Virus record (IMG/VR): IMGVR_UViG_3300035146_000036
Source of the DNA: a virus
DNA length: 64,000 bases
Reading direction: 5' to 3' (one strand)
Shown here in pieces: positions 6,063 through 60,857 of the stretch (position 1 is the stretch's first letter; every line of letters starts with the position of its first letter). The position numbers and the translations under genes are program-made. The notes under the pieces are model-generated. The model saw only the letters and a program-made list of their open reading frames with translations, made no database searches and was not told the origin of the DNA.

Positions 6063-6600
6063 TGAATATGATATCCGATATTTAGGAACTCTATATGAGG
6101 ATTTATCAGAAGTTACTAAACGTCAAACTATTACTCTTCAGTCATTAGAGAGAATTGCTATAGAGACACAGACTTTTCTAGAAGCACAAGGAGAGAAGGT
6201 TGATGATAATAAGAAAACGATAAAAGATCATGATGTTAGAATAAGAAGTGTTGAGAGAAAACAGGATTTGTGTAATGCATCAGATGATATTAGTGGAATA
6301 AAGAAACAGTTGAATCGTCTTATAGCTTTTAAAGATATGATTTTGTCTAAAACAAATGAAGATAGTGGAGTTTTAGATATTCATGCATTGAGGATGAAGA
6401 AAGCTGTTGATGATGCGATGCTTAATCAAATACCTGTTAAGCTTTTGTTGATAAAAATGTTACCTTGGATGATTCTTGTTTTTGTAGTAGGTATTGTATT
6501 AGCTACTATTATTACTACTAAAATGTTTTATGATGATAAAATTATTGTTCCTAATCCGCCAATTTCGCCAATAGAAACAGAAACGAACTCGAGTTCGTGA
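6046..6600 (+). CDS. Hypothetical coiled-coil protein with C-terminal TM segment
   Basis: ORF; start placed at internal ATG after GGAGAG; C-terminal hydrophobic stretch. Confidence 0.4.
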   Translation: MSKKSDEYDIRYLGTLYEDLSEVTKRQTITLQSLERIAIETQTFLEAQGEKVDDNKKTIKDHDVRIRSVERKQDLCNASDDISGIKKQLNRLIAFKDMILSKTNEDSGVLDIHALRMKKAVDDAMLNQIPVKLLLIKMLPWMILVFVVGIVLATIITTKMFYDDKIIVPNPPISPIETETNSSS

Positions 6601-6617
6601 GTTAAAGGAGAATTGAT

Positions 6618-6884
6618 ATGCCAAAAGATATGAGAGAATTGATAGAAAAAACAAATATTGATTCAAAATTAAAAATATCATGGAATAAAATTTTTAAACA
6701 ATTAAGTGATACTTCTGAACTTGATACTGTTATTTTTCATTTTTCAAAGTCTATTTTGAGAGCTGGAATTAATAATAAAGAATTAGAAAAAAAAAGGAAG
6801 GAATTTAGAAAAGTTGCTGATGAATTAACAGAAATAATGCATGATATTGTTTATGGATATTTAGAGAAAAGATCTAATATATGA
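6618..6884 (+). CDS. Hypothetical protein
   Basis: ORF with AAGGAG RBS. Confidence 0.45.
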   Translation: MPKDMRELIEKTNIDSKLKISWNKIFKQLSDTSELDTVIFHFSKSILRAGINNKELEKKRKEFRKVADELTEIMHDIVYGYLEKRSNI

Positions 6885-7202
6885 ATAGGATTGTTACAAG
6901 AGGATTAGGTCCAACGCAATTATTGATTACTCGAGGTTATGGGTTTACTGGTGCAATAGTAAAAATTTATAGAGAAATTTTAAGATTAGTATCAAAAGTT
7001 ACTACTAGATTGGGATTAGTATCACAATGTCAGAAGAAAGATTGTGTTTAGTATCAAAAATTACTAAAGAAGTAGATTTGACATCTAATCTTAACATATC
7101 TGTCAATATTGTATCAAATATAGGATTGGTGATAGAGGATGTTTCTATGATATCTCCAGGATTGATTTTGACATCAGCATTTCATTTAGAGGAGTGCACA
7201 TA

Positions 7203-7520: not shown

Positions 7521-7522
7521 TT

Positions 7523-8374: not shown

Positions 8375-8391
8375 GAGTTGAGAGGTGAAAG

Positions 8392-8688
8392 ATGACAAAA
8401 TCGGTTGATATAAATCCTAATAATGTTGATAAGAATAGTAGTAAGGTTAGTAGGTTAGATGATTTGAATATTACTTTGATGGGAGTAGAGAATGATTTGA
8501 TGGGTAGAGCTTTGGATAGAAGTAGAGATGAAGTAGAAAGAGCATATGATTTTATAAATAAAGCTGCAGAGAATGATGTGATAGAAATAGATTGTGATGG
8601 TTGTGATGATGAATCTAATATTGTACAATCATCCAGTGATGAAGATAAAGATAAGAATAATGAGCCTGTTAAAGAGCCATCTGATTAA
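8392..8688 (+). CDS. Hypothetical acidic protein
   Basis: ORF with GAGAGG RBS. Confidence 0.4.
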   Translation: MTKSVDINPNNVDKNSSKVSRLDDLNITLMGVENDLMGRALDRSRDEVERAYDFINKAAENDVIEIDCDGCDDESNIVQSSSDEDKDKNNEPVKEPSD

Positions 8689-8722
8689 TTTTTTGGCGAA
8701 CTCGAGTTCGCAAGAGGATTAA

Positions 8723-9907: not shown

Positions 9908-12703
9908 ATGACTGATTACACATATCCTGGGGTCTATATTCAAGAGGTTCCTAGTGGTCCTGGTCCGATTACTGGTGTTTCAACATCTAATTTGGGTCTT
10001 ATTGGTTTTTCTACCAAAGGTCCAGTTAATGAACCAATTATATCGACAAGTTTTCAGGAATTTTCGAACAGATTTGGAAGTTTTACAGAGAAGGGTTTAT
10101 CTGCTCATGAAGCGTTTGCTTTTTTCTCTAATGGTGGACAAGTTTTGTATTTTGTTAGGGTTGTGGCTAGTGATGCTGCAACAGCTTATTGGGATTTTGC
10201 TGCAACAGTATCAAGTGAAAATGTATCAAATACTGCTGAAGGAACAGGGATTTATGATTTGGAATTAGATCATTCTCCGGTTGTTCCTGCTACATTGACA
10301 TTGACTTTTACAAATTCTGGTACACCAGCAAATCAAAACGTATTTGTTGCTGATGCTAGTGGTGTGTTAACGTTAGATACAACAGCATCGGGTGTTTCAG
10401 CTGATGGTGGTACTGGTTCTGTTGATATGGAAACAGGGGAGATTCATGTAGAATTGACTACACCTGGTCAATTTACAGGAAGTACTGATTATATTGTAGC
10501 TGAATATAATTATACGATATTCAGGTTTAGAATGGCATGGCCAGGATTGGCTGGGAATTATTTTAGAGTAAGGATAATTCCAGGAAGTGATGATTATCTT
10601 GTTCAGGCTGAAGCTAGGTGGACAAGATTTACAGTAATCGTTGAAGAAGATGTAAATTATGATGCAACAAATCGTTCATGGTCAATTGTTGAGACATGGG
10701 CAGATCTTGTATTTGATGATTCAGAGGATCCAAATTTTGTTGCTACAGTAATAAATGCTGATGGTGCTGGGTCTGATTATATCGAAGTAGTTGATTATGG
10801 AAACGGAATGAATCCTGCAGCGCTTGCAGGAACACAAATTACGTCTGAGGATATTTCTGATACTCAATTACCACAAGGCAGCACTTCTACTCCTCCTGTT
10901 GCATATGACGGAACAACAAAGGCTTGGGAATATACATTGGCAAATGCTCCATTTCAGAAGACTTTGAATATGGATTTTCAGATGGCTGATGGCTTAGTAT
11001 CTTTTACTGGTGCAGCCACAGCGGATAATGTAGTTCTTACAGATTCTGGAGCAAATTTTACTGGTGGTGGGGCAGCAGATAATTTAGCTGGTAAGATTGT
11101 TGTAAATATATCAAAGGGAGCATCTGCAGTAATAACTGCAAATGATGCAACGACAATAACAGGTGTATTAACAGGTGGGGCTGTAACATGGTTAACAGGT
11201 GATTTGTATGCTGTTATTGAGGCATCAACAAAGATAGGAACAGGAACTGCTCAAGCAAGTGGTCAAGAATCTGTAATATCACCTGGTAATACATCAAATC
11301 CTGTTCAGATTGTTCCTGGTTCAGTTGTGATGGAATTGACTCTTACTGGACCTACAACTGTTCATGTTATAGATGATGGATCTGGTAATTTATGGGATGG
11401 TTCTGGTGGATCGTTGGCAACAATTGATTATACAACTGGTCAGATTACAGGTATAAGTCCTACAACTGATGATCTTATTACGATACAGAGTGTTACAGCA
11501 TGGGCAAGTGACACAGTTGCTGTTGGTAGCGAAATTAAATTTGGTTGTATATATGCAGTTCCAATTGCATTGGAGGATGATGCGGATGGGAATATGGTAA
11601 TGTCAGATACCCAAGCAACTGGGTATCCTGCTAAGTTTTCGCTTAATCTTGTTTCTGGTGTAAATACTGTTAATTATACAACTGGTGTTGTTGATTTAAC
11701 ATGGAAAATTGAGGGTAATCCAGTTGCAGGTCCAGCAGGAGTATATTCTGAAACAGCAGATTATTATACAAATCCAGATGATGAGATAGCAACGGTATTA
11801 ACAGGAGGGTCTGATGGTTCTTCTGTTTCTAGTGATGATGTTGTAGGTGCAGATTTGGCAGTTGACCAGGAAGGCATATATGCTTTTGGAAAAGTAAATG
11901 CCTTGATGCAACTTGTAGCTGCTGATTTTCAGACAGATACAAATGTTGCTGATGCACTTATTACATATGCTGAATTGGTGAAGGATAAATTTGTTATTTT
12001 GACGGTTCCTCATGGTCTTAGTTATCAAGAGGCTGTTAATTGGAAGAAATTTCAACTTAATAAATATACTTCATATGCTGCTTTGTATTATCCGCATATC
12101 AAGATTAAGGACCCTGTGAGTGGAGTAAATCAGGATATTCCTGTTGGTGGACATGTAGCTGGGGTTTACGCAAGGACTGATACTATAAGAAATGTTGGTG
12201 AAGCTCCTGCTGGTACCGAAAAAGGTGTTTTGAATTGGTCAACTGGTCTTGAAGTTGAGTTGACTGATACACAGGTTGGTATTATATATCCAGAAAAGAT
12301 AAATGCTTTAGTAGCATGGGCTAATACTGGACGTGTTGTATGGGGTGCTAGAACATTAGATATTTCTGGAGGTGAATGGCCATATATTCAGATGCGTAGG
12401 CTTTTCATGTTTGTTGAAAAATCAGTGTTTAATAGTACTCATTTGCATGTATTTAAAAACAATGGTTCTTCATTATGGAGTGCAATAAGAACTCAGGTCG
12501 TTTCTTTCTTGTTAGGTTTGCACCAATCAGGATATTTTGCTGGAAATAGTCCAGATGAGTCATTCTTTGTGATTTGTGACCGGTCAAATAATCCTCAGAA
12601 TACAGTGGACCAAGGTATCGTGTTTTGTGATGTAGGGATTGCACCTAATAAGCCAGCGGAATTCATAGTGTTCAGATTTCAGCAAAAGGCACTCACTAGT
12701 TAA
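9908..12703 (+). CDS. Contractile tail sheath protein
   Basis: N-terminal YPGVYIQEV and C-terminal VVWGARTL motifs are characteristic of the phage/T6SS sheath family; size and position ahead of the tube genes. Confidence 0.85.
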   Translation: MTDYTYPGVYIQEVPSGPGPITGVSTSNLGLIGFSTKGPVNEPIISTSFQEFSNRFGSFTEKGLSAHEAFAFFSNGGQVLYFVRVVASDAATAYWDFAATVSSENVSNTAEGTGIYDLELDHSPVVPATLTLTFTNSGTPANQNVFVADASGVLTLDTTASGVSADGGTGSVDMETGEIHVELTTPGQFTGSTDYIVAEYNYTIFRFRMAWPGLAGNYFRVRIIPGSDDYLVQAEARWTRFTVIVEEDVNYDATNRSWSIVETWADLVFDDSEDPNFVATVINADGAGSDYIEVVDYGNGMNPAALAGTQITSEDISDTQLPQGSTSTPPVAYDGTTKAWEYTLANAPFQKTLNMDFQMADGLVSFTGAATADNVVLTDSGANFTGGGAADNLAGKIVVNISKGASAVITANDATTITGVLTGGAVTWLTGDLYAVIEASTKIGTGTAQASGQESVISPGNTSNPVQIVPGSVVMELTLTGPTTVHVIDDGSGNLWDGSGGSLATIDYTTGQITGISPTTDDLITIQSVTAWASDTVAVGSEIKFGCIYAVPIALEDDADGNMVMSDTQATGYPAKFSLNLVSGVNTVNYTTGVVDLTWKIEGNPVAGPAGVYSETADYYTNPDDEIATVLTGGSDGSSVSSDDVVGADLAVDQEGIYAFGKVNALMQLVAADFQTDTNVADALITYAELVKDKFVILTVPHGLSYQEAVNWKKFQLNKYTSYAALYYPHIKIKDPVSGVNQDIPVGGHVAGVYARTDTIRNVGEAPAGTEKGVLNWSTGLEVELTDTQVGIIYPEKINALVAWANTGRVVWGARTLDISGGEWPYIQMRRLFMFVEKSVFNSTHLHVFKNNGSSLWSAIRTQVVSFLLGLHQSGYFAGNSPDESFFVICDRSNNPQNTVDQGIVFCDVGIAPNKPAEFIVFRFQQKALTS

Positions 12704-15068: not shown

Positions 15069-15392
15069 ATGAGGAATAGATTATCTGATTTTATTATTGA
15101 TAAGCCGGTTAAAGAGGAACATGTATTATCTTACAAAGGTAAACGTCTTTTTAGGGCATTAAAATCCTTGGGAGAACGTTCCATTAAAGGACGTGATGTT
15201 GATAAATATATTTTTGAAGTTGTATATAAAAATGGTGTAGAAACATTAAGAATGCTTATCGAAGGTAGACATGCTTTATCTATTAGTAATCAGATAGCAA
15301 AAGGACTTTCAAATATGGACGAACTCGAGTTCGTTGATGTTGTGAAAACAAAAAATGGTGCGAAGATTGTACTTCGTTCTATTGGAGAGTAG
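15069..15392 (+). CDS. Hypothetical protein
   Basis: ORF. Confidence 0.4.
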   Translation: MRNRLSDFIIDKPVKEEHVLSYKGKRLFRALKSLGERSIKGRDVDKYIFEVVYKNGVETLRMLIEGRHALSISNQIAKGLSNMDELEFVDVVKTKNGAKIVLRSIGE

Positions 15393-15401: not shown

Positions 15402-15812
15402 ATGGGAAAATTAAAGATATATTCTGATAGTATAGATGAGTTACTGGTTAATAGGGTTGATGCTGATGTAATGAGTGAATCATCTGAGTTAGGTAATGAT
15501 GATGAAAAGATTGATGAGGCTTGGAAGATTGAAGACTATATGTCTAATTTTGTTTCGGTAAAAGCTTTGGTTGCGTTGTCATTGTCGATAGTAAAGCGAA
15601 TGAAAGGCAGTGCTCTTTCTAAATTTCAAGGAAAATTATCTGATATTGATAATGAGATGGAAAAAGAAATAGACAGAATGGATAGCAAAAAAGAGATGGA
15701 ATTTAATAAATTATATATGAAAAAGATAAAAGGTGTTAAGGCTAAAATATTAGAAGAATTTGGTGGCGATTTTTTGAAAGAAATTGAAGAAGATAAAAGG
15801 GAAAAAGAATGA
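15402..15812 (+). CDS. Hypothetical acidic coiled-coil protein
   Basis: ORF with GGAGAG RBS. Confidence 0.4.
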   Translation: MGKLKIYSDSIDELLVNRVDADVMSESSELGNDDEKIDEAWKIEDYMSNFVSVKALVALSLSIVKRMKGSALSKFQGKLSDIDNEMEKEIDRMDSKKEMEFNKLYMKKIKGVKAKILEEFGGDFLKEIEEDKREKE

Positions 15813-16320: not shown

Positions 16321-16354
16321 TAAAAAAATTGATGTTTCACGTGAAACAGAGAGG

Positions 16355-16659: not shown

Positions 16660-16677
16660 GTGTTTTATGTCAAACAC
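16660..16677. terminator. Hairpin between convergent genes (GTGTTT-tatgtc-AAACAC), weak bidirectional terminator candidate
   Basis: 6-bp inverted repeat where plus and minus genes converge. Confidence 0.3.
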
Positions 16678-17015
16678 TTATTGATCCATTCAGTAATGAG
16701 AGCATCATAGATTTCACAGACATCGCATGGTTTAGTAAGAATATGTATATTGGGCATATCATATTTGAGTGTATAGTTTGCTGTATATATTACGAATGGT
16801 ATTGTTGAATGTTGAACTATTTTTAGTCCGTCTGATTTGTTTGGGCAATCCCAATCGCTAAGGATTATGTCAAAATTTCCGTCTTGAAGAGCTATTAGTC
16901 CATCATCACAGGAATGTTTGACTGTTATACTTTTCCAAGTATTTTTCATTACTCTGGAAAGCATACGAGTAATTTGTTCATCATCATCAATGATTAGTAA
17001 ATTCAGGTTTTTCAT
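16665..17015 (-). CDS. Stand-alone response-regulator receiver (CheY-like REC) domain protein
   Basis: LLIIDDDE...DIILSDWDCPNKSDGLKIV...LTKPCD aligns with CheY DD pocket, phospho-Asp (ISDWNMPNMDGLEL) and conserved Lys (VVKP). Confidence 0.8.
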   Translation of the reverse strand: MKNLNLLIIDDDEQITRMLSRVMKNTWKSITVKHSCDDGLIALQDGNFDIILSDWDCPNKSDGLKIVQHSTIPFVIYTANYTLKYDMPNIHILTKPCDVCEIYDALITEWINKCLT

Positions 17016-17022
17016 TGTTTTT

Positions 17023-17232
17023 TTACCATACGGCTATTTGTTTTTTGCATGAATCACAATGTTCAGTGTTTGATTTGGAGAGATGTGAATTCATAATAAA
17101 AATAGCAGTTCCTTCTTTTTCTAGTCGTTTAGCACATTCTGTACAATAGAGATAACCTCTGTTGTCGACTATTCCTGTAATTGTATTATTTGGGTCATTT
17201 TTTTGATAGATATAAATTTCTGAGGCTTTCAT
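17023..17232 (-). CDS. Small CxxC...CxxC zinc-ribbon protein, co-transcribed with REC gene
   Basis: CTEC...CDSC motifs; 8 nt upstream of the REC ORF on the same strand. Confidence 0.5.
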   Translation of the reverse strand: MKASEIYIYQKNDPNNTITGIVDNRGYLYCTECAKRLEKEGTAIFIMNSHLSKSNTEHCDSCKKQIAVW

Positions 17233-17276
17233 TAGTTTGTTCCTTTCTGTCGAAATCTTATCGACTATCTATATGA

Positions 17277-17361
17277 ATATTAACATTATGATAAAGTTTG
17301 TCAACTTTTTTGATAAAAAAATGCAAAAGTGTTGATAATAATAGTATAAAAGTGGTATTAT
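17277..17361. promoter_or_regulatory. Divergent promoter region (minus-strand TTGACA-16-TAATAT; plus-strand TTGATA-18-TATTAT)
   Basis: Hexamers read directly; located between the minus REC operon and the plus RHH gene. Confidence 0.45.
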
Positions 17362-17393
17362 TTACTCAAGTAGTGTTTTAGGAAGGTTGTTAT

Positions 17394-17573
17394 ATGCCAA
17401 GGTTGAATGTTGAAATAAAAAGTGGTGTATATAAGAGGTTTCTTGATCAATGTAAGGAGGATGGTAGAAGTGCTAGTGATGTTGTTAGAGAGTTGATTTT
17501 AGATTATGTGGAGAGAAGAGTTAGGGAAAAATTTAGGATTGCTAAAATAGAGAAAGAAGTTACAGATGAATGA
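17394..17573 (+). CDS. Ribbon-helix-helix (CopG/Arc-like) DNA-binding protein, 59 aa
   Basis: VYKRFLDQCKEDGRSASDVVRELILDYV is a typical RHH beta-strand plus two helices; GGAAGG RBS; below the ORF-track size cutoff. Confidence 0.6.
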   Translation: MPRLNVEIKSGVYKRFLDQCKEDGRSASDVVRELILDYVERRVREKFRIAKIEKEVTDE

Positions 17574-18393: not shown

Positions 18394-18600
18394 ATGTCCT
18401 TGAGGATGAAATGTTTTATTTAATGGAAAGACAAGGACAGAGTTATTTGACCATTATGAATATGCCATATTCAAGAAGAAAGCGGTTTGTAGAAAAAAAA
18501 TCTTCATTAGATAGATCTGCTATGAATGTTAAAAAGAATCAGCAAAGTTATAGCAGACCAAGACGAAGAAGGTAACGAACTCGAGTTCGTGAGGTAAATA

Positions 18601-21600
18601 ATGAGTTTTCTTGGTATATCATTGGAGATGGCAGCTGTTGATGCTGGGATGAAGGATGGCATTATAAAGGCTGCAAAAGCACTTGATGATGTTAACAAAA
18701 TGTTAATAGACCAGGATAGTGTTATCAAGAAAATCAAGAAAGAGAATTTTTTTGAAGATACAGAAAAAAATGCCGGTAAAGCATCTAATAAAGTAGGTAT
18801 TTTATCTAAGACATTTAAAGAGCTTGGCAATATTGGGTCAAAATCTGCAAATAAAATAAAATCATCTTTTGATAAAATAAGAAATTCTGTGATGCAATTT
18901 AATATTGCTGATATGGCATCAAATGTTAGAACATTAACTGGAGAGACTGGTAATCTTACAAATAGTTTGGAAGCTACAATGGTGAGTATGCTTCAGTCTA
19001 CTAAACCAGTTGCTGCATCATTGAATTTATCAGGAAAGGAGATGAGGAAGTTTGCAAGTCAAGCGGCAAGTATGGCCTATAGTATGAATACATCGGCTGA
19101 TGCTGTTGCAGAGACAATGAGGTCAATTCATGTAGCTAATAAGGGAGCAACAGAGGCTATGAATGAATTGGGATTGTCTACAAAAGATTGGGTAAAAGTT
19201 GTTCAAACAACTAACGTTCCTATGTCTGAATATACAGCTATTCTTGGTGATATGACAACAAGTTGGCAAGCTTCACCAAAAGAGGCCGCTAATATGATTG
19301 ACAGCCTTATGGCAATAGGAAAGGCTGCTGGAACTGGAACTGGTGCTGTAAAGAATGCAAAAGTTCAGTTGGATGAATTAGGGGAAGTTTTTAAAACATT
19401 GCCTCCTTCTATGGCAAGAACTTCTGACGAGATAATGAGTTTAATGCAATCATCAGCTAGAATGTCTGGTGTATTTAGAGAGATGGGAGATACGCAAGAA
19501 GAAGCTATAACAAAGGCAAATACTGTAGCAAGAATGTTTGCTGAACAGGATGTAGCTATTAGAAAAGCTTTAAATATTGGTGATGACCGTGCTCTTATGG
19601 ATAATCCATTGCTTAAGTATCTTATGAGACTTGGTATTGGATTTGATTCGGCCAGAAAGATTATTGAAACTGGTAGTCGTGATGTAGTTGCTGGTATGAA
19701 GATGGTTAATAATGTTTATGCACGTTTTGGAACTGATGTGTCTCCACAAGTTCAAAGAGCTTTATCTGGATTAAGTGGTGCTCTTGGGGAAGGAGCTGCT
19801 GGATTATCATATTTGGCGACTAATACAAAACAAGGAACTGCTGCATTAGATAAAATGGCAAAAATGGCTGTTGATGGGTCTGGTGCATTAAAGAAATTTG
19901 GAAAAGATGCATATAGTTCCGGGTTAACCTTACAAGAAACATATGATAGAGCAAAAGAGTCATTTGATACAACTGTTAGAAGTATAGCTAGACAAAATGT
20001 AAGAAATCTTGTTGGAAAACAAATTGCTGGTATGCGTGAAGCAGGAAAAGAAATAAAAGAACTTGGTTCTGATAAAACTTGGGGACCATGGGTAAATGCA
20101 TTATCTCAATTTCGTCAGATGGGTATTAGTGGTGTATTTGCATCTATGGCTGAATATACAGGGGTTGGTGCTAAAAACGCGGCAAAATTTGGATCTAAAA
20201 TTGGATTAGTATTTGATACAGTTAGTCAGTTTGGAAGTGAACTTGCTCCAATAATGCATATGTTGGGTATGGCAGGTCCTCTTGCTCCATTAATTGCTGC
20301 TGGAGGTATTGGTGCTTTATTATTTATGGATGATTCGTCTGTTAGACAAATTTTAGGTCCATTTTATAAAATTTTTAATGATTTAAAAAATAAGGCTGCA
20401 AAAATATGGGATTATTTTATAGGTATTTGGGATAATAAAGTTGTTCCTAGGATTAAAGTATTTTGGAAATATGATATGAAACCAGCAATGATTGATTTTT
20501 GGAATGAAGATTTTATTCCTTTTTTGAAAGAAAATATTCCTAAATTGGGGATGGCAATATGGGATGGAATTAAGTGGGCTTGGAATAAATTAGGAGAGAT
20601 GACAGGAACTACTGGTCAGGCAGGTGTTATAGGTGGAGCTATGTTGGCTGGTTTTGGACCAGGAATGGTCGGAGCTGGTACTCAAGCTGGAATAGCTTTT
20701 TTGAAAGCTGTTGCATCTCATCCAACTGCTGCTGGTGCTACAGGTCTTGCTGGTTTAGCTGCTTATGCTGGGTGGAAAATGGCAGAGTCTATTTTTGGGC
20801 CAAAATCTGTTAGTAATGCAATAGCTGAAGCTGAGGTAATAGCTGGTGGAAGTGCTGATAAATTTGGAATGTATAAGTTGGCATGGCAGCGTAAACCGGA
20901 AGAGATGGCAGGTCAATTGGGCAGATTAAGAGCTGCTCTTAAAGCGGAAAAGGAAAGTTGGTTTCCTGATAGTGATGATGTTAAAATTCTTGAAAAAGCT
21001 ATATCTTTATTAACAGATGCCCAAAGTGAGCTTATTCTTGATAAGACGGAATCGAATGTTGAAAAATATACTTTGGGTGGAAAGACGACAGCAGAGCAAT
21101 TTATAAATGGTCTAACATCAGGATTAGAAGAAGGTAGGCAATCTGTTGATGATGGTCTTGATTTTATAGCAGATGGAATGATAGCACATTCTCCAATAAA
21201 ATCTGGTCCTCTTGCTGGTGAAGGAGAGTCTAACGCTGCATATCGTGGTGGATATTTTACGATGGAACAGTTTGCTTTAGGTATTACAGATAGTACTGAT
21301 ATTATTAGGAGAGCAATTGAAACAACTCTTAATGATTCTGTTATACTTACTATAGATACATATGCTGCTAAAATGAGAGACCTTGCTAAACAAAAGATGT
21401 TTTTGGCATCTGTTGCTAAAGCAATGGTAAAAGATTTAGGTGGAAATATAGAAACATCTATTGATTCCGAATCTGATATAAATGTGAAAAAGAATTTTGA
21501 AGCTGCTATGAATTTACCTGGTCTTGCTAGTGTTGTTTTGGCTGTTTCAAATGAAGGTGCTCAAACAAGGAAATTATTAAAACGTATTTTAGAAGAAAAT

Positions 21601-21675
21601 ATACGTCAAACTAGTGTAATGAGTGGTGGTGTGAGTATTCCTGTGACAGGAACTACTACTCCACCACCAAGTTGA
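18601..21675 (+). CDS. Tail tape measure protein
   Basis: 1024 aa, Ala/Gly-rich helical protein with hydrophobic Gly-rich segments; between chaperone candidate and baseplate genes. Confidence 0.75.
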   Translation: MSFLGISLEMAAVDAGMKDGIIKAAKALDDVNKMLIDQDSVIKKIKKENFFEDTEKNAGKASNKVGILSKTFKELGNIGSKSANKIKSSFDKIRNSVMQFNIADMASNVRTLTGETGNLTNSLEATMVSMLQSTKPVAASLNLSGKEMRKFASQAASMAYSMNTSADAVAETMRSIHVANKGATEAMNELGLSTKDWVKVVQTTNVPMSEYTAILGDMTTSWQASPKEAANMIDSLMAIGKAAGTGTGAVKNAKVQLDELGEVFKTLPPSMARTSDEIMSLMQSSARMSGVFREMGDTQEEAITKANTVARMFAEQDVAIRKALNIGDDRALMDNPLLKYLMRLGIGFDSARKIIETGSRDVVAGMKMVNNVYARFGTDVSPQVQRALSGLSGALGEGAAGLSYLATNTKQGTAALDKMAKMAVDGSGALKKFGKDAYSSGLTLQETYDRAKESFDTTVRSIARQNVRNLVGKQIAGMREAGKEIKELGSDKTWGPWVNALSQFRQMGISGVFASMAEYTGVGAKNAAKFGSKIGLVFDTVSQFGSELAPIMHMLGMAGPLAPLIAAGGIGALLFMDDSSVRQILGPFYKIFNDLKNKAAKIWDYFIGIWDNKVVPRIKVFWKYDMKPAMIDFWNEDFIPFLKENIPKLGMAIWDGIKWAWNKLGEMTGTTGQAGVIGGAMLAGFGPGMVGAGTQAGIAFLKAVASHPTAAGATGLAGLAAYAGWKMAESIFGPKSVSNAIAEAEVIAGGSADKFGMYKLAWQRKPEEMAGQLGRLRAALKAEKESWFPDSDDVKILEKAISLLTDAQSELILDKTESNVEKYTLGGKTTAEQFINGLTSGLEEGRQSVDDGLDFIADGMIAHSPIKSGPLAGEGESNAAYRGGYFTMEQFALGITDSTDIIRRAIETTLNDSVILTIDTYAAKMRDLAKQKMFLASVAKAMVKDLGGNIETSIDSESDINVKKNFEAAMNLPGLASVVLAVSNEGAQTRKLLKRILEENIRQTSVMSGGVSIPVTGTTTPPPS

Positions 21676-24695: not shown

Positions 24696-24731
24696 TTGCG
24701 AACTCGAGTTCGTTGTGATAGGGTATAGAAT

Positions 24732-40160: not shown

Positions 40161-40190
40161 CGAACTCGAGTTCGCAAGAAGGAGGATGAG

Positions 40191-42914: not shown

Positions 42915-43243
42915 TGTTAAAAATGAGTGATATATTTAATATTATAGAGAGTAATAATGCAGATTTATTAAGGGCGAAAAATAGGTCTGAAAATATACAT
43001 AAAACACTTATGCCAAGAAGTGCTTCTGAATTATCTAGGTCAGGAACAATGATAAGGAAGAAGTTTGATAAATATATTGATGCTCTTAAAGATCTTATAG
43101 AAAAGGACAACCTTACTATTGATAGGATTATGTGGAAGGGTTTTTCACATGATTTTTTAATAAAAATAAATGAATTGTTGAGTTTGAATGAATGTTTTAG
43201 TGTAGTAGTTGACGAAATTAATAAAATAAACAAAAAGAAATAG
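42914..43243 (+). CDS. Hypothetical protein
   Basis: ORF. Confidence 0.4.
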   Translation: MLKMSDIFNIIESNNADLLRAKNRSENIHKTLMPRSASELSRSGTMIRKKFDKYIDALKDLIEKDNLTIDRIMWKGFSHDFLIKINELLSLNECFSVVVDEINKINKKK

Positions 43244-43274
43244 AACGAACTCGAGTTCGCACCAAGAAGGATAT

Positions 43275-43607
43275 ATGATGTTAAAACGAGATAAGAAGAT
43301 AGACCCAAAAAAATTTTCGATATTTAAAAGATTTATTCCAAGGGCCAAGGAGATTTCAAAATCTAAATTAAATAGGGGGATATATCGTGAACAGGGTGCT
43401 TGGGATAATATTAAAAATATGTCTGATAATGAATGGATAAAACGAATTATTAATCATATTCGTGCAGCAGATTTAACTATGTCAGATAATGATATGATAA
43501 AAGATCCTGGTAAAGCTATGACATATTATAGAGAAAACATCAATGAAAATGAAAATATGAGTGATATTTTGGAGAGTATTGAAAGGAAGATAAAGAATGG
43601 GATGTAA
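43275..43607 (+). CDS. Hypothetical protein (NMSDILESIE motif)
   Basis: ORF after palindrome and AAGAAGGA RBS. Confidence 0.45.
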   Translation: MMLKRDKKIDPKKFSIFKRFIPRAKEISKSKLNRGIYREQGAWDNIKNMSDNEWIKRIINHIRAADLTMSDNDMIKDPGKAMTYYRENINENENMSDILESIERKIKNGM

Positions 43608-43677
43608 GAAAAAAGGCGGAAAGAAGAAAAAGAAATAATTGTTTCACGTGAAACATTGAATATTAAGAGAGGAAGCA

Positions 43678-44205: not shown

Positions 44206-44241
44206 AAAAATAAAGCAATTAAATATACAGTTGCTAAAAGG

Positions 44242-44586
44242 ATGACAAAAAAAATGAGCGATAAAGATAATAATAGAATGAGCGATATTTTAGAAGGAAT
44301 AGAGGAAGGTATGAAAGGATTTGACCCATCCTTGAAATTGAATAAAGGAGATATTGCTCTTGGTCAAGCGATTGGACATTTATGGAAAGCAGCAGAAGAA
44401 TTAGATGCAGCAAGTGGTATGGGTAAATATGAAAAAATATTGCATGATGTTATTAATAGAATAGGTAAAGATATAGAAAGTGTTAATGATAGTCGTACAG
44501 GATATATGGATGCTATTTATGGTATATCTCAAAAAGTATGGGGAAGAGGAAGTAAATTTCCTAAGTTTGCATATACAACAAAATAA
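44242..44586 (+). CDS. Hypothetical protein (MSDILEGIEE motif paralog)
   Basis: ORF. Confidence 0.45.
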   Translation: MTKKMSDKDNNRMSDILEGIEEGMKGFDPSLKLNKGDIALGQAIGHLWKAAEELDAASGMGKYEKILHDVINRIGKDIESVNDSRTGYMDAIYGISQKVWGRGSKFPKFAYTTK

Positions 44587-44626
44587 ACAAAGCAACTAAA
44601 TATATAGTTGTTTAAAGGAGGACAAA

Positions 44627-46576: not shown

Positions 46577-47601
46577 AAAAAGTAGAGTTATCATGGAGTG
46601 AGGGTGATACAGATGTCATTATTTTGGTGGATGATGATCCGCTGAAAATTCTGACGTATGAATTTGACTCGGATGCCGTGCATGATTTTTGTATAGCAGG
46701 GCAACTATATTATCGGTCAAAATCTGGGTTATCTGGGGCGGGTTGGGTTCCTGCCAATGATGTCTTAAAGTTGGGATGGTATCGCGTAGACATTCCTAGG
46801 CAATCTCCCGTTAATGTTGCATCAATTGGGGATGGTCTTTATATGTGGATCCCAATTCGGGGTCACAAGGGGATAGATAAAAATTATCCAGTAGTTATAT
46901 CAGACCGGTTAGACAAAGTATGGTTTTTACCAGTGAATTTTGTGCAACGCAACATTTCTTCCATCATCCAAAGTCTCGATGTCGCAATGTCGAATGATTG
47001 TTTGACCGCAAAACAGATTCCATTTACTTGGCTTGTGCCTGAGCGACCACCATTGCTTGAAGTTCGACGCTTCGATACTAACGAAAATAACGAATTAGTG
47101 GATGTATCTTATGAGTGTACTTTATATACGATGGAATCTACTGCTTCAAGACCTTCAATTAGTAGATTTCTTAATTTGGAAGAATATACCATTCCTACTC
47201 ATCAATGGTTGGGAGAACTTGCTAGGCCGCAAACAACGTGGATGAAAAATTTAGGTATTTATCAAGTCTTAGATGACCAGTGGGTTGTAGTTGGAAAAGA
47301 AGGCTTGATAGAGCATACTCTTTCATCGGACCCTCGAATGATAGATGGCGGGGAGATGTGTCATGGGTGGGCATTCGAAGGCGATGGTTTAGTTTGGCGT
47401 AGTACTTTTGATGGTATAAACACTAATATTTATGCCATAAAAGAAATTCCTAGTAGCCGCATTTCTGATGTGCATGATGTGCAGAATGATAATGATGAGG
47501 AATATATAGCGCATGAAATTACCATTAGCGAATATCAGTGGAAAGTGATGACGTCACAGGATCGTCATGCCATGATGGATAAAAACTTAAAAAAAAGTTG
47601 A
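46573..47601 (+). CDS. Hypothetical protein (342 aa)
   Basis: ORF with 4-nt overlap to the upstream gene. Confidence 0.45.
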   Translation: MKKVELSWSEGDTDVIILVDDDPLKILTYEFDSDAVHDFCIAGQLYYRSKSGLSGAGWVPANDVLKLGWYRVDIPRQSPVNVASIGDGLYMWIPIRGHKGIDKNYPVVISDRLDKVWFLPVNFVQRNISSIIQSLDVAMSNDCLTAKQIPFTWLVPERPPLLEVRRFDTNENNELVDVSYECTLYTMESTASRPSISRFLNLEEYTIPTHQWLGELARPQTTWMKNLGIYQVLDDQWVVVGKEGLIEHTLSSDPRMIDGGEMCHGWAFEGDGLVWRSTFDGINTNIYAIKEIPSSRISDVHDVQNDNDEEYIAHEITISEYQWKVMTSQDRHAMMDKNLKKS

Positions 47602-47655
47602 CAAAGCATTTTTGAGGTCTTAAAATCAGTATAGATGCTCAACAAGATGTTGAGC
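47599..47655 (+). promoter_or_regulatory. Sigma70-type promoter (TTGACA-16-TAAAAT) followed by stem-loop CTCAACAAGATGTTGAG
   Basis: Near-identical copy at 49313-49369. Confidence 0.6.
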
Positions 47656-47670
47656 GAAAGGAGAAGAAAG

Positions 47671-47991
47671 ATGAAAAACCTGATAGGGTATGAGGCAATT
47701 GATTTCAAGCGTAGTAATTCAGATTCAGTGCTCTGCAAATATGCAGACCCCATAGAAGACGCGCGTTATGACATCTCAGTAGCAGATGCTGAGGAAATCG
47801 CCAGCGAAGACCCCAGTCTCATCTTTATCTATGTCAAGCCAACGGAATTTCTAGTTTATATGGATGCGCCTCGACATTGGGCTGTAGCCGCTGTCGATCT
47901 GGATGATGATTTGAGTTGGGCGCGAAATTGTAACGGGGTATTCAAAAACCCCAAAGACGCGGAAGCCCATGCTGCGCGATTGAATGGATAG
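47671..47991 (+). CDS. Hypothetical protein
   Basis: ATG after AAGGAG; ORF-track start at 47635 lies inside the stem-loop. Confidence 0.4.
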   Translation: MKNLIGYEAIDFKRSNSDSVLCKYADPIEDARYDISVADAEEIASEDPSLIFIYVKPTEFLVYMDAPRHWAVAAVDLDDDLSWARNCNGVFKNPKDAEAHAARLNG

Positions 47992-49312: not shown

Positions 49313-49369
49313 TTGACAAACTATTTTTAATGTCTTAAAATCAATGTAGATACTCAACAAGATGTTGAG
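49313..49369 (+). promoter_or_regulatory. Sigma70-type promoter (TTGACA-17-TAAAAT) plus stem-loop, duplicate of 47599-47655
   Basis: About 50 nt nearly identical to the upstream copy. Confidence 0.6.
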
Positions 49370-51592: not shown

Positions 51593-52156
51593 ATGAAAAT
51601 TGATTTAAGTGGAAGAAATTTGCGAGGAGCCATTTTGGAAGGGGCTGACCTCGAAGGAGCCAATCTAAAAGGGGCTGACCTTGAAGGTGCCAACCTCAAA
51701 GATGCCTACCTAAAAGGAGCCAATCTAAAAAAAGCCAACCTTGAAGGGGCCAATCTAAAAGGGGCCTTCCTCGAAGGGGCTGACCTCGAAGGGGTTAAGT
51801 TCAAAGAAGCCAACCTCAAAGGGACCAATCTTGAGGGGGCCATCCTTAAATGGGCCAACCTAGAAGGTGCCAAACTCAAAGAAGCCAACCTAAAATTGGT
51901 CAACTTTGAAGGGGCAGACCTTAAAGATGCTAACCTTGAAGGGGCCAATTTTGAAAGTGCCAACCTCTACTTGGCCAATCTTGAAAGTGCCAACCTTAAA
52001 GGGGCCAAGTTTAAAAGGGCTTACTTGGAAGGAGTCAACTTTAAAGGGGCTTACCTGGAAGGGGCTGAATTGGAAAAGACAGATTTAAGTGGGATAAATT
52101 TAGAAGGGGCCTATCTCAAAGGGTCCAACCTCGAAGGAAGAAAAAATGAAAATTGA
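51593..52156 (+). CDS. Pentapeptide-repeat protein 1
   Basis: A[DN]L[EK]GA repeats throughout; starts [13 protein letters not shown]. Confidence 0.75.
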
Positions 52157-52784
52157 TTTAAGTGGAAGAAATTTGCGAGGAGCCAACTTCGAAGGAATTG
52201 ATTTGCGAGGTGCTAAGCTAGAAAGGACCAACCTTGAAGAAGCTAACCTCGAAGGAGCCAACCTAAAAGGGGCCAAACTCGAATGGACATACCTAAGATG
52301 TGCCAATCTTGAAGGGGCAGACCTTGAAAAGGCAGACTTTACAGGGGCCAATCTTGAAGGTGCTAACCTTGAAGGTACTGACCTCAAAGGGGCAGACCTA
52401 AGAGGTGCCAATCTCGAAAGGGTCAACCTCAAAATGGCCAACATCGAAGATGCCAACCTAAGATATGCCAATTTTAAAGGGTCAGACTTTACAGGGGCCA
52501 ACCTTGAAGGGGCAGACCTTGAAATGGCAGACCTCAAAAGGGCCAATTTAGAAATGGCAGACCTAAAAAGGGCCAATCTAGAAGGGGCCATCCTTAAATG
52601 TGCCAACCTTGAAGGAGTCAATCTAGAAGGAGCCAATCTAGAAGGAGCCAACCTCGAAGGGGCCAAAATTAAAGGGGCCTACCTCAAAGGAGCCAATCTT
52701 AAAGGAGCCAATCTTAAAGAGGTCGATCTAGAAGAGGTCGATCTAGAAGGGGCCAACCTCGAAGGGATAAAAAATGAAAATTGA
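52146..52784 (+). CDS. Pentapeptide-repeat protein 2
   Basis: Tandem paralog with same N-terminus; start overlaps the upstream gene. Confidence 0.75.
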
Positions 52785-53286
52785 TTTAAATGGAAGAAAT
52801 TTGCGGGGAGCCATCCTCAAAGGGGTCAACTTCGAAGGAGCCAACCTAAAAGGGGCTGACCTCGAAGGGGTTGACCTCGAAGAAGCTAACCTCAAAGGGG
52901 CCAATCTCAAAGGGGCCAATCTTGAAAGTGCCAACCTTGAAAGTGCCAATCTTGAAAGTGCCAACCTTAAAGGGGCCAATCTTAAAGGGGTCAACCTAAA
53001 AGGGGTTGGCCTCGAAGGGGTTGACCTAAAAGGGGTTGACCTCGAAGATGCCAATCTAGAATGGGCCTACCTTAAAGATGCCAATCTTGAAGGGGCCAAT
53101 CTCAAAGATGCCAACATCAAATGGGCTTACCTTGAAGGGGTCAATCTCAAAGATGCCAATCTTGAAAGTGCCAATCTTGAAAGTGCCAACCTTAAAGGGG
53201 CCAATCTTGAAAGTGCCAACCTTAAAGAGGTCAAGTTCAAATGGGCTGGCTTCGAAGGGGCCAACCTCGAAGGAACCAAGATATAA
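52774..53286 (+). CDS. Pentapeptide-repeat protein 3
   Basis: Tandem paralog. Confidence 0.75.
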
Positions 53287-53634
53287 AAATAAATATACTA
53301 AGTAGAGGAGAGATATTATGAAAAAGAAAAGATATCCTGAACCAACTATGCCTAAGCCTGATTTGGAGCAAATTGAGAGATGGGGTTTTTCTTCGGTTTG
53401 TGAAGCAACAGATGGATGTGTAGTGGAACCTGATGGTATATGTCCACATGGATATCCATCGTGGTTATTGTATCTTGGATATATATAGACAGCGAACTCG
53501 AGTTCGCAAAGAAGAAGATTAATATGGATATTTCTAAAATAATGATTGATACGACATATGAATCTATTATTTAGTTATTTGTATGAAAGATATGGATAGG
53601 AAATTATTGGAATATTTTTTATTTAAAAAAGTAC

Positions 53635-53741: not shown

Positions 53742-54014
53742 ATGGAAGAAAAAAGTGATGATTATTTGATTGGTGAATTGGAACGATTGAATATAACATT
53801 GGAAAGTATTTTAAATATTTTTCTATCTGATAATAATGTAGATATTACGAATGAAAAAAGTGATTCAGTTGTAGTTGATATTAAAAAAATTTGTAACGTG
53901 ATTCCTGTATGCAAAAATAGGATAGAGAAATTATCTCGTATTAATAGAGAACTCATGGCAAATATGTGTGCTATAGAAGAAATTGTTATGGGTAATGAAA
54001 ATCGAGATAGTTGA
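53742..54014 (+). CDS. Hypothetical protein
   Basis: ATG after GGAGG; ORF-track start is TTG. Confidence 0.4.
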   Translation: MEEKSDDYLIGELERLNITLESILNIFLSDNNVDITNEKSDSVVVDIKKICNVIPVCKNRIEKLSRINRELMANMCAIEEIVMGNENRDS

Positions 54015-54038
54015 CAATGTAGTTTTTTTGTGTATTAT
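54011..54038 (+). promoter_or_regulatory. Sigma70-type promoter (TTGACA-16-TATTAT)
   Basis: Hexamers read directly. Confidence 0.45.
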
Positions 54039-54221
54039 CTATGACTAGATAGTTGGCAAGATGCCAAAGAAAGGTTGATTTGATAATGAAAATTGATAAA
54101 TGTAAAGTTGCTTTTTCTATTAAACTAGATCCTAAAGTGGTCAGGGAAGCAGCGTTGAGATATCCTGATAAGACTGTTTTGGATGCTTTTTTTCTTATGG
54201 GGTTTTTTATGGGGGTATTGA

Positions 54222-54906: not shown

Positions 54907-55923
54907 ATGGAAAAGATTTTATGGGTTTTTGTATATTTTATATCTTTGGGGTGTGCTGCTGAACCAGATGCATTTTTGGACGTCGATGCTGGATATATTT
55001 GGATAGATTCTGCTTATATTTACAGTAACAGTAATGTTTTTGATACTGGAAATGAGTATGTTGATGCAGATGCCGATTCTGATAGTGATACAGATGCCGA
55101 TACAGACGCTGATGCGGACACCGATACTGATACAGATGCAGATACTGATGCAGATTCTGATACAGATACTGATACAGATAGCGATTCTAATACAGATAGC
55201 GATTCTGATACAGATAGCGATTCTGATATGTATATAGATACTGATACAGATATCAATATTGAATGTGAAAGTGAATGTCTAAGTAGTTGTTCTTCTTTAG
55301 GTGGAATTCCTGTTAGTGGTACATGTCCTAGAGGTTTGAAATGTTGTAATATGAATGGGTATGTGGATAGTGATGCTGATACAGACTCAGATGCGGACAC
55401 GGACACGGATGCAGACTCAGATTCAGACTCAGATGCGGACACGGATGCAGACTCAGATACTGATACGGATACTGATTTTGATACGGATTTTTATGGTTTA
55501 ATGGATACTGAAACAGAAGAATCAGTATGTTTGGATAATGGATATGAATTCCCTGATGATTCTGGGATATGTTGGTATTATAGGTCAGATCTTCCAGAGG
55601 AGAGGTCAGATTGTATAAGTGTATGTCATAGTTTTGGCCTTGAATATTCTGATGATACTGAAAATGTGATTAAGGATAATCATAAGAATTGTATATCTAT
55701 AGTCCAAGGATTGGGGTTAGAAGGTGAAACTGGATATTGGTATGCTTCGATTGATTCTTGTGGAATAGGAGACCGTACATGGAATGTTGGAGCAGCTGGG
55801 TGTACATATCACAATGATTCTAGTGATATGGTTTTTCATCAGATACTTGTGGTTGTTTGTAATGGTGGGGCAATCATGTCAAATCGTAGGTCAGTAGATC
55901 CTAGATTATGTGCTTGTGAGTAA
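54907..55923 (+). CDS. Secreted/lipoprotein-like protein with Asp-dipeptide (DA/DS/DT) repeat blocks and Cys-rich modules
   Basis: N-terminal hydrophobic signal ending ISLGCAA; two (D-A/S/T)n blocks; 6-Cys block C-x3-C-x3-C-x11-C-x5-CC. Confidence 0.55.
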
Positions 55924-56460: not shown

Positions 56461-56787
56461 ATGTTGATTGATGATTATGATAAGGCTAATGATATTTTGG
56501 GTCCAAAAACAACTTCTGAAAAAGTATTAGTGTCTTCTTTGAAGACTATTGGTTTCGGAAGAGCGATGCAATTGGTTCAAATAAATTGGGGACTTTATAA
56601 CGAATCTGGAATAGATATGTTTTGTAAACCAGGTTCTGAGTTTGTTGTTGGACCATGTAAAGCCGAAGTGGTGGCATGTGGATGTGATGATCCAGTTGAT
56701 TGCGAATGGTGTGCTGGTACTGGGTGGCTTACAAAAAAAGTGAAGAAGATGAAAGATGCAATTAGTATGGTTAAAAGATGCAATTAA
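56461..56787 (+). CDS. Hypothetical Cys-containing protein
   Basis: ORF. Confidence 0.4.
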   Translation: MLIDDYDKANDILGPKTTSEKVLVSSLKTIGFGRAMQLVQINWGLYNESGIDMFCKPGSEFVVGPCKAEVVACGCDDPVDCEWCAGTGWLTKKVKKMKDAISMVKRCN

Positions 56788-57041: not shown

Positions 57042-57104
57042 AATTGTGGTTTAGTCAGGTTGGTGACGAACTCGAGTTCATTAAGGTTGTAAGGTGTTGG
57101 AAAG

Positions 57105-59993: not shown

Positions 59994-59994
59994 G

Positions 59995-60318
59995 ATGAAA
60001 GTTATAGAGTATGAAGAGTGGTTAAAAGAAGCATCAAAGCGATATCCGGATAAGAATATTGTTTTTACTTGTCCTGTATGTGGATATAAGCAGTCTTTAA
60101 AGGAATTGAAGGAGGCAAAGGTACCAGAAGGTTCTTGGGGGTTTTCATGTATTGGAAGGTATATAGGTGGGCGAGATGCTATTAAAGAAAAAGGAAAGGG
60201 ACCATGTAATTATGCTGGAGGAGGTCTTTTTCAACTGAATCCTATTCATGTGAAAGATGAAGAGGGTAATATTCATCAATTGTTTGATTTTGCGGATGAC
60301 CCACTTAAGGAAAAATAA
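59995..60318 (+). CDS. Zinc-ribbon protein
   Basis: CPVCGY...C..C. Confidence 0.45.
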   Translation: MKVIEYEEWLKEASKRYPDKNIVFTCPVCGYKQSLKELKEAKVPEGSWGFSCIGRYIGGRDAIKEKGKGPCNYAGGGLFQLNPIHVKDEEGNIHQLFDFADDPLKEK

Positions 60319-60857
60319 TGAAAAAGAATGAAGAAAATGTGGAGATAGAAGTACTTGAGTTGTCTCCTGAAGATTCACTTATTTTTGCAGAAGCCATATT
60401 GAATCCAAGAGAGCCATCTGATGTTTTGAGACGAGATTTTGATCTTTACAAAAAGATGGTAATTAGTGACCAGGATGATATAGGTGAAACGAACTCGAGT
60501 TCGCCAAAAAAAGGATTATGGATGTTAAAGGATATTGTTACACCAAATGATGTGGTTGATATATTAAATAAGGTTTTAGCTATAGATTCATATGCAATAA
60601 ATCAACTTATTAATATGCGTGTTATTTGTAATAAGGATTTAGCAGATATACCAAATATACAAGTTGGAAAGAGACCAGAGGGTGGATATAGAGTAGGCAT
60701 ATTGGGTATTTTGAATGGTGTATTTGGTAAAGATGATACAACTGGATTTGGTTGTATATGTGCTAATATAAATAAAGAGACAGGTTTGGTTGAGAGATTT
60801 TCAATTTTGAATGAAAATGATTTTGAAGATATAAAAAACAATAATACGATTGCCTGA
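60318..60857 (+). CDS. Hypothetical protein
   Basis: ORF; contains a copy of the CGAACTCGAGTTCG palindrome. Confidence 0.4.
   Translation: MKKNEENVEIEVLELSPEDSLIFAEAILNPREPSDVLRRDFDLYKKMVISDQDDIGETNSSSPKKGLWMLKDIVTPNDVVDILNKVLAIDSYAINQLINMRVICNKDLADIPNIQVGKRPEGGYRVGILGILNGVFGKDDTTGFGCICANINKETGLVERFSILNENDFEDIKNNNTIA

Follow-up and report, generated by a model that had tools for sequence, protein, structure and literature searches.

Why should a virus carry ten copies of one virtually unchanging palindrome, most of them squeezed into the short gaps between its genes? The question is raised by a 64,000-nucleotide stretch of the IMG/VR virus record IMGVR_UViG_3300035146_000036 (the window, meaning this whole stretch), in which an initial annotation made from the letters alone had noticed the 14-bp palindrome CGAACTCGAGTTCG. 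A pattern search finds nine exact copies, at 6584, 8697, 15320, 18576, 24699, 40161, 43246, 53493 and 60490, and a tenth that matches at 13 of 14 positions (CGAACTCGAGTTCA, at 57067); the coordinates, the count and the extension to 16 bp given in that annotation are therefore right, and no additional copies exist in the 64 kb at up to two mismatches. The number had been called far above chance, and it is: dinucleotide-preserving shuffles predict 0.04 copies, and ten were reached in none of 100 shuffles. All ten GAAC-N4-GTTC words in the window have TCGA as their N4, and CTCGAG occurs 15 times, ten within the motif and five outside it. In every window copy a purine stands at -1 and a pyrimidine at +14, so that the consensus including flanks is T-W-R-CGAACTCGAGTTCG-Y-W-A, and the palindrome in its 20-bp duplex form is TWRCGAACTCGAGTTCGYWA. 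Copies are spread at a density of about one per 4-6 kb, mostly in the tightest spacers separating genes that run in one direction.

The same constancy is seen in related viruses. Motif scans covering IMG/VR, GTDB genomes and JGI metagenomes returned many low-G+C, G-skewed contigs with several copies, belonging to relatives at 56-99% protein identity. The initial annotation had proposed a search of related phages as a check, and every relative has the exact word, even where protein identity is as low as about 55%; those whose thymidylate kinase is just 55% identical keep it in four copies within 20.7 kb. Among 15 orthologous pairs of sites, the 40-nt flanks are 71% identical and the 14-mer is identical in 15 of 15, including the intragenic copy at 15320, whose synonymous positions are frozen. 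Hence, selection acts on the DNA word. The position of the copy at 8697 is kept in two diverged relatives (L167 and L117), the nucleotides of the copy at 15320 are kept in L200 and L116, where its flanks are only about 75% identical, and the variant copy at 57067 has no counterpart at the matching position of a relative designated R. One relative comes from the metagenome-assembled genome CAYUTF01, 'uncultured archaeon isolate binchicken_co196_315', whose contigs 8, 16, 26 and 80 (168 kb; L143-L230) are phage DNA at 60-95% protein identity to the T4-like phage of the window, with at least 22 motif copies; the archaeal label looks like a binning or taxonomy artefact. These contigs hold positional equivalents of the copies at 8697, 15320, 18576, 24699, 40161, 43246, 53493 and 60490. 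A repeated GCGCTCGAGCGC on the high-GC contig L246, which encodes a remote thymidylate-kinase homologue, lies mostly within genes and was judged unrelated. The same 14-mer in Kordia and Fibrobacterota genomes belongs to A-tract/T-tract terminator-like hairpins and is likewise unrelated to the phage motif.

Is this word read as duplex DNA or as an RNA hairpin? Both had been suggested by the initial annotation, and the flanks of 56 non-redundant family sites bear on the choice. A purine at -1 and a pyrimidine at +14 are present in 56 of 56 sites, A or T is favoured at -2 and +15, and T at -3 (57%) is mirrored by A at +16 (52%); this symmetry is present despite a strongly asymmetric strand composition, with C at about 10%. 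For the pair (-1,+14), 33 Watson-Crick combinations are observed versus 27.5 expected (p = 0.11), and (-2,+15) falls under expectation. Over the seven mirrored flank pairs, Watson-Crick combinations are not above the shuffled expectation save for a marginal excess at -5/+18 (p = 0.04 without correction), and the pairs also include A/C combinations. Selection for a longer helix would not be expected to leave such a pattern. Since the mirrored flanks are uncoupled, each half-site appears to be read independently, as by two identical protein subunits on duplex DNA. Between the two earlier suggestions, the protein site is thus better supported, by symmetric, uncoupled flanks and an invariant centre, and the hairpin is weak, with a stem of 5-6 bp and a folding energy of -5.0 to -6.7 kcal/mol at 37 °C. 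We therefore favour, tentatively and with a probability of about 0.45, the reading that the element would be a site with two-fold symmetry, recognised on double-stranded DNA by a sequence-specific protein that binds as a dimer.

The distribution of copies also needs explanation. Only about 6.8% of the window is non-coding, and seven of the ten copies lie wholly in spacers (binomial probability of seven or more, about 1e-6). These spacers are minimal, with a stop codon 0-8 nt upstream in six window cases and an ATG 11-24 nt downstream. Counting the two flanking bases, and with no strand assigned to any copy, the first (aCGAACTCGAGTTCGt, 6583-6598) falls on the last codons of the open reading frame (ORF) 6046-6600, which it overlaps only at its end, and its motif end is 20 nt from the ATG at 6618. 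The second (gCGAACTCGAGTTCGc, 8696-8711) follows the stop of 8392-8688 by 8 nt and precedes the ATG at 8723 by 12 nt. The third (15319-15334) lies within the ORF 15069-15392, where it encodes D-E-L-E-F-V, and is the only copy intragenic beyond doubt. The fourth (18575-18590) is 0 nt from the stop of 18411-18575 and 11 nt from the tape-measure ATG at 18601, and the fifth (24698-24713) lies between the stop of 24342-24695, 3 nt upstream, and the ATG of a gp25-like baseplate wedge gene (24732), 19 nt downstream. Next come the sixth (40160-40175), 0 nt from the stop of 39744-40160 and 16 nt ahead of the ATG at 40191, and the seventh (43245-43260), which has the stop of 42914-43243 2 nt upstream and the ATG at 43275 15 nt downstream. 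The eighth (53492-53507) lies 4 nt after the stop of 53318-53488, is followed by an ORF of only about 20 codons, and has an early promoter (53635) some 140 nt downstream. The ninth is the G14A variant (aCGAACTCGAGTTCAt, 57066-57081), 24 nt ahead of the ATG at 57105, where a 962-aa Bro-N/Ant-like protein begins. The tenth (60489-60504) is within the long ORF 60318-60857, 15 nt ahead of the in-frame ATG (60519) with which a separate phrog_21281 module begins. The seven starts that had been listed downstream of copies thus stand, at 11-24 nt from motif end to ATG, as do the gene labels attached to two of them, since 18601-21675 matches a tape-measure PHROG and 24732-25160 matches baseplate-wedge, gp25-type PHROGs. 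The three copies described as inside ORFs fared unevenly: 15320 is intragenic, 53493 is intergenic, and 60490 is in an ORF but before the ATG of a separate module.

Distance statistics from 60 family sites, 44 scorable for the stop and 46 for the start, extend this pattern. The motif follows a stop by 0-25 nt in 34 of 44 sites, and a start follows the motif by 11-27 nt in 30 of 46, the minimum being 11 nt. Certain family copies lack an adjoining ribosome-binding site and precede early promoters, follow a tRNA gene or precede a terminator-like hairpin, and some lie 8-33 nt upstream of a -35 box or early promoter. The description of the copies as mostly upstream of start codons therefore captured a real bias but over-read it, as the tie to the upstream stop is at least as tight. 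Moreover, in a genome that is about 93% coding, any non-coding DNA site must sit ahead of a ribosome-binding site, so the bias is not diagnostic; the motif alone takes a large share of the window spacers longer than 25 nt. The bacterial centromere site parS (TGTTTCACGTGAAACA), known to be bound by protein, provides an internal comparison: two exact canonical copies, at 16333-16348 and 43640-43655, lie in short spacers 16 and 24 nt before starts, and they are kept in the relatives L168, L200, L214 and L221, at times 27-70 nt from a copy of the CGAAC motif. Because parS occupies the same type of spacer, the position of the motif is what would be expected of any non-coding DNA site. The motif shares with parS and the Noc-binding site (NBS) what we take to be a common 16-bp palindrome architecture and a central C-N-C|G-N-G, with agreement at only two of eight half-site positions.

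The window is part of a large phage. By PHROG and Pfam matches it encodes a contractile tail, with a sheath (9908-12703), the tape measure (18601-21675), baseplate proteins and gp19-type tube proteins; its G+C content is 30-39%, about 93% of it is coding, and the genes lie almost all on the plus strand. Related contigs encode a Gp23 T4-type major capsid protein, a Gp20 portal, a prohead protease, RecA/UvsX-like, DnaB and Cpn10 proteins, as well as a NYN nuclease, a KH protein, two XRE-type helix-turn-helix (HTH) proteins and two DNA methyltransferases. The window protein 47635-47991 is also encoded on the 158,275-nt contig Ga0373597_0000001; thus, the window is part of an uncultivated T4-like myovirus of about 158 kb. 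Against GenBank phages, 49 kb of the window yields no megablast match, and tblastn gives remote ones only, the sheath at 33% to Bacillus phage BCD7 and a helicase at about 30% to Thermus and Rhodothermus phages.

The motif is not confined to this family. The 38-kb IMGVR_UViG_3300035136_000034, a smaller and different myovirus with Baseplate_J, Pam3_gp18 and Bro-N domains, has nine copies in the same type of spacer. Three small accessory genes, and nothing else, are common to this phage and the T4-like family: those for the window proteins 47635-47991 and 56461-56787 and for a D/T-repeat protein. The last, an Asp/Thr-Ser repeat secreted protein (54907-55923), and the CxxCxGxG zinc-finger-like 108-aa protein (56461-56787) share 73-78% identity with their counterparts in the 38-kb phage (L122, 5307-8097), where the repeat protein bears an Lcl_C/DUF1566 domain. 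This level of identity suggests that the two phage types have recently exchanged genes. A further link comes from the 3.8-kb contig L334 (Ga0316579_10011283), which is like the family's tRNA region and carries an array of clustered regularly interspaced short palindromic repeats (CRISPR) at 2312-3444, with 16 repeats of GTTTCCACGGTCTTACGACCGTGGCTTTATTGAAGC. Nine of its 15 spacers match the 38-kb phage at 88-100%; one of the nine, sp1, contains CGAACTCGAGTTCG and matches only partially, at 24 of 26 nt across a motif copy. These matches indicate that the two phage types meet in the same host, and the presence of the motif in both makes it a property of a host-linked phage community rather than of one lineage. 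Possibly the array is carried by a phage and directed against a competitor. Solitary type I-C-like CRISPR repeat units (GTCGC-hairpin-...GATTGAAAC, also written GTCGC...GTGGATTGAAAC) stand among the phage tRNA genes, one in the window (62881-62909, just upstream of tRNA-Ile) and six in L334 (864-1530), and could be processing signals or repeat mimics. As for the identity of the host, the L334 repeat has no match in plasmid and phage collections, and the thymidylate-kinase homologues are all metagenomic. The phage promoters, Shine-Dalgarno sequences and purine skew are compatible with a Firmicutes-like host and are no proof of one.

What else, other than a protein-binding DNA site, could account for the palindrome? 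The obvious alternative is an RNA element, in which a CGAAC-UCGA-GUUCG hairpin between a stop codon and the next Shine-Dalgarno sequence is read by an RNA-binding protein or endoribonuclease. It would mark a site of processing, stabilise the 5' or 3' ends of polycistronic mRNA after cleavage, or control translation as an operator, in a logic likened to the T7 intergenic RNase III sites or the T4 RegA/RegB controls. The layout suits it: all copies are in transcribed sequence on the coding-strand side, in the order stop, 0-25 nt, motif, 11-27 nt, start, and the Shine-Dalgarno region is never invaded. At a few sites the flanks lengthen the helix and sequester the Shine-Dalgarno sequence (8697, for example, at -14.4 kcal/mol), one copy directly adjoins a tRNA gene at its 3' end, the family encodes a NYN-domain nuclease, a KH-domain protein and RNA ligase/repair proteins, and the phage uses RNA hairpins elsewhere, in the stem-loops past its early promoters. 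Against this, there is zero compensatory variation, the mirrored flanks choose R/Y, W/W and T/A independently, and Y at -1 with R at +14 is never seen though pairing would be equal. The phage's real hairpins in 5' untranslated regions (5'-UTRs) behave oppositely, varying in sequence and keeping their pairing. In addition, certain copies precede a promoter or a terminator-like hairpin rather than a ribosome-binding site, and Rfam at gathering thresholds reports only three tRNAs in the window and no family matching the motif. The stem is also far below RNase III substrates, and a processing site of the RNase III type, as in T7 and SP82 with an irregular stem of about 20 bp or more, was rejected on that ground. 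We regard an RNA element as unlikely. An intrinsic terminator was rejected as well, since no T-run follows the phage copies, in agreement with the initial annotation. The same annotation had argued against a module-specific promoter, and indeed no conserved -35/-10 or other element stands at a fixed distance from the motif, and the sigma70-type early promoters of the window lie away from its copies. A core element for a middle/late sigma-like factor or phage RNA polymerase, firing just upstream of the gene, can still be imagined, as no word other than the motif and the Shine-Dalgarno sequence recurs upstream of genes in the structural module, starts have no T4-type late promoters (TATAAATA) nearby, and the leaders would be short, like those of T4 late genes. 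Yet a perfect palindrome without an asymmetric flank element is directionless, 11-27 nt to the ATG forces the start site inside the motif, the major capsid and sheath genes have no copy, certain copies are intragenic or upstream of sigma70-type promoters, and the Pfam summaries contain neither an RNA polymerase nor a sigma family. We consider a promoter very improbable.

Gene gain and loss beside the copies suggests another possibility, a recombination or cassette-junction element. In near-identical genomes (L137-L140), a 308-bp cassette (43275-43582) after the copy at 43246 is missing and the motif is kept; the breakpoint is 15 nt past the motif, after the Shine-Dalgarno sequence but before the ATG, and the other end has no second copy. 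Relative R lacks the accessory gene 15402-15812 after 15320 and the module 60519-60857 after 60490, an early promoter replacing the phrog_21281 module at the latter position; it also has about 600 nt of extra DNA right after the equivalent of 53493 and extra DNA after that of 6584. At least five indels therefore adjoin motif copies, a figure counted without a control set of spacers, and the single resolved breakpoint is outside the motif. Repeats at gene boundaries would, on this account, drive the gain, loss and exchange of accessory genes in co-infecting phages, and the spread and homogeneity of the motif would reflect a selfish or evolvability role, not regulation. Gene-content differences directly downstream of at least five of the ten window copies fit this, as do the only two indels of the conserved tail module, both adjoining a copy, the unrelated phage with its motif and three accessory genes at 73-78% identity, and the precedents of the Cluster O repeats (PMC4351075) and the PeSL elements (PMC4122927). 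However, the copies before core tail genes are positionally conserved over deep divergence, which implies a function in place, and the breakpoint at 43246 lies beyond the motif with no second copy at the far end. Recombination alone also leaves the symmetric flank preferences and the conserved intragenic copy unexplained. Part of the association is expected anyway, because indels survive only at gene boundaries and the motif fills a large share of the longer spacers (above 25 nt). The association may be a side effect of having identical repeats where such changes are tolerated. We consider a recombination element improbable. Some other DNA transaction, with the motif methylated or otherwise modified, nicked, or used to organise the chromosome as parS and NBS are, would be more improbable still. 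TCGA and CTCGAG lie within the motif and the family has N6_N4 and D12-class methyltransferases, canonical parS co-occurs, and the exactness of the copies is closer to that of parS-like or restriction-like sites than of operators; but 16-20 specified positions far exceed what a methyltransferase reads, CTCGAG also occurs five times outside the motif, and no ParB-family protein is present among the sampled proteins.

If the palindrome is indeed a symmetric protein-binding DNA site, which protein would bind it? Its arms and 4-bp spacing equal those of the SOS (LexA, Cheo) box, CGAAC-N4-GTTCG, and all window and family copies fit the consensus CGAACN4GTTCG of Bacillus subtilis and Staphylococcus aureus (PMC9578287). 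A LexA-type SOS repressor is for this reason the sole named candidate, and LexA itself as the binder is a doubtful proposition. More probably, the binder would be a conserved host protein than a fast-evolving phage repressor, because the word is identical while phage proteins have diverged to 25-55% and the unrelated phage shares no recognisable DNA-binding protein. The shared zinc-finger-like protein 56461-56787 was tried as a binder and rejected, as a 47%-identical homologue is found in a phage contig without the motif; its family has only six database relatives, and its AlphaFold model is unusable (pLDDT 47.8). Bound in the spacers, a dimer would stand in the path of RNA polymerase on long operons, where it could serve the next gene block as a roadblock or valve, much as a stoperator does, and rising genome copy number could make the sites a sink for the bound protein. 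We infer the binding, the binder and the effect on transcription from the features of the site.

Several observations weigh against a dimer site of this kind, and against LexA in particular. Pfam and PHROG scans, which took in the proteins of the window, about 185 others from the family and 50 from the unrelated phage, find no LexA, ParB, sigma or RNA-polymerase family and no DNA-binding family common to both phage types; the only DNA-binding families seen are the two XRE-type HTH proteins of the family, a weak ribbon-helix-helix protein (17394-17573) and Bro-N. An invariant TCGA centre and fixed R/Y flanks are unexpected of SOS boxes, and the sites do not overlap promoters. There is no spectrum of weaker sites, which the regulon of a transcription factor normally shows. 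All copies are in transcribed DNA at least 11 nt from starts, which an RNA-level function would explain too. Moreover, the phages look strictly lytic, as T4-like phages, so that the benefit of a roadblock is hard to see, and the genome scan finds the motif in multiple copies only in the mis-binned phage metagenome-assembled genome, with chance single copies otherwise. A bolder version, which the sequences make conceivable and we think improbable, takes the motif and parS together as sites where host proteins dock, the dozens of optimal LexA-type boxes capturing or titrating the SOS repressor during replication. If so, phage gene blocks would be gated to LexA cleavage, or the host SOS response would be switched on without DNA damage, and the motif array would be a virus-borne sink and sensor for a transcription factor, convergently maintained in unrelated phages. 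A literature search returned nothing relevant on LexA decoys or titration by phages, and the exact 14-mer appeared there only in the loops of short hairpin RNA vectors.

How does the motif compare with known systems? The closest precedent is the 17-bp palindrome TGTTCGGNNNCCGAACA of Cluster O mycobacteriophages, present in more than 30 copies with invariant arms at intergenic and intragenic sites and unexplained in function (PMC4351075). As here, there are dozens of copies per genome, in short intergenic and some intragenic sites, mostly off promoters and with indels at copies, and the authors too inferred a dimeric DNA-binding protein (PMC4351075). In contrast, the Cluster O repeat has a 7-3-7 structure with a variable centre (TGTTCGG-N3-CCGAACA) and is restricted to one phage cluster, whereas the present motif is a contiguous 16-mer with an invariant centre and occurs in a T4-like family and an unrelated myovirus of the same host; the two cases differ in host phylum and in phage type as well. 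The stoperators of Cluster A phages (L5 gp71; PMC9283540, PMC6550527) likewise consist of many near-identical sites genome-wide, in short spacers among co-directional genes, and their bound protein in the path of elongating RNA polymerase is the mechanistic model adopted above. However, stoperators are asymmetric 13-mers, oriented with transcription and bound by a monomeric phage immunity repressor of temperate phages, unlike a palindrome with symmetric flanks in a T4-like phage in which no lysogeny genes are seen; protein comparison and Pfam scans find no repressor candidate shared by the motif-bearing phages. The SOS box has identical arms and spacing, and LexA is dimeric with a specificity conserved over whole phyla, which would explain one word in very different phages. 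SOS boxes nevertheless vary in their N4 centre and often in their arms, and overlap promoters, whereas the TCGA and R/Y flanks of the motif are fixed and promoters are not overlapped. Multiple near-perfect palindromes of 13-16 bp, many of them off promoters, with a dimeric binder and global effects, are also known as the 12 KorB OB sites of plasmid RK2 and as chromosomal parS and NBS, and their binders are ParB-family proteins of the replicon or host. The motif differs from parS at six of eight half-site positions, no ParBc domain appears in the Pfam summaries, and genuine parS occurs at sites of its own. PeSL elements of T4-type phages (PMC2839356, PMC4122927) resemble the motif as repeated, intergenic stem-loops in T4-like genomes, and their association with indels and swaps of accessory ORFs may have a parallel in the indels beside motif copies. 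A PeSL element combines a terminator-like stem-loop, a sigma70 early promoter and a Shine-Dalgarno sequence, is variable in sequence and is concentrated in hyperplastic regions; the motif, in contrast, is promoterless (no -35/-10 before the ATG), invariant and found also before core tail genes. What distinguishes the motif among all of these is its sharing by unrelated phages, its LexA-box arms and its coexistence with canonical parS.

The phage's own promoter-plus-hairpin elements form a class separate from the motif. Its sigma70-type early promoters (GTTGACAAAC...TAnAAT) lie at 47598, 49313, 53635, 54011, 54812, 60870, 61770 and 62102, and six of them match 11 of 12 consensus positions; they follow the extended consensus GTTGACAAAC-N-TAnAAT, and four of them are delimited as 47598-47655, 49313-49369, 54011-54070 and 62102-62158. 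A 5'-UTR hairpin is located downstream of each, in several cases with a conserved AAGA-type loop (CTCAAC-AAGA-TGTTGAG, CTGAGC-AAGA-TGCTTAG, GTTGGC-AAGA-TGCCAA), and the stems vary in a compensatory way. Another repeated hairpin, AAGCAAYTAAATATAYAGTTGY, at 44206-44253 and 44587-44626, brackets the gene 44242-44586, which is missing from relative R. The tRNA cluster at 62471-62993 (Met, Thr and Ile(tat)) is joined by 13 further tRNAs in the continuation contig IMGVR_UViG_3300034989_000084 (L121, 1513-9395), where one motif copy begins exactly at the 3' end of the tRNA-Arg(cct) gene. The only minus-strand island of the window (16665-17573), in the middle of the tail module, encodes a receiver-domain-like 116-aa protein and a 69-aa protein; it adjoins a 341-nt non-coding region, the weak ribbon-helix-helix protein gene and a parS site. 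In addition, three tandem pentapeptide-repeat protein genes (51593-53286) come right after a SNF2 helicase gene, and their number varies among near-identical genomes, with extra copies in L137 and a different set in L141. The G>C skew on the coding strand is extreme (0.19-0.54 per 4 kb), with C at about 10%, and is the same in all relatives and in the unrelated phage.

In summary, dispersed invariant palindromes are already known in phages, in Cluster O, without explanation so far. The identical word across a deeply diverged family and an unrelated phage points to a conserved, probably host-encoded, reader. If a global regulator of the host reads the motif, large lytic phages would connect their operons to host proteins that bind the chromosome, or soak these proteins up; should a phage factor or an RNA signal be involved, the motif would represent a new regulatory layer of an uncultivated T4-like lineage. 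Either way, the motif is of practical use as a marker of this phage community and of its linkage to a host.

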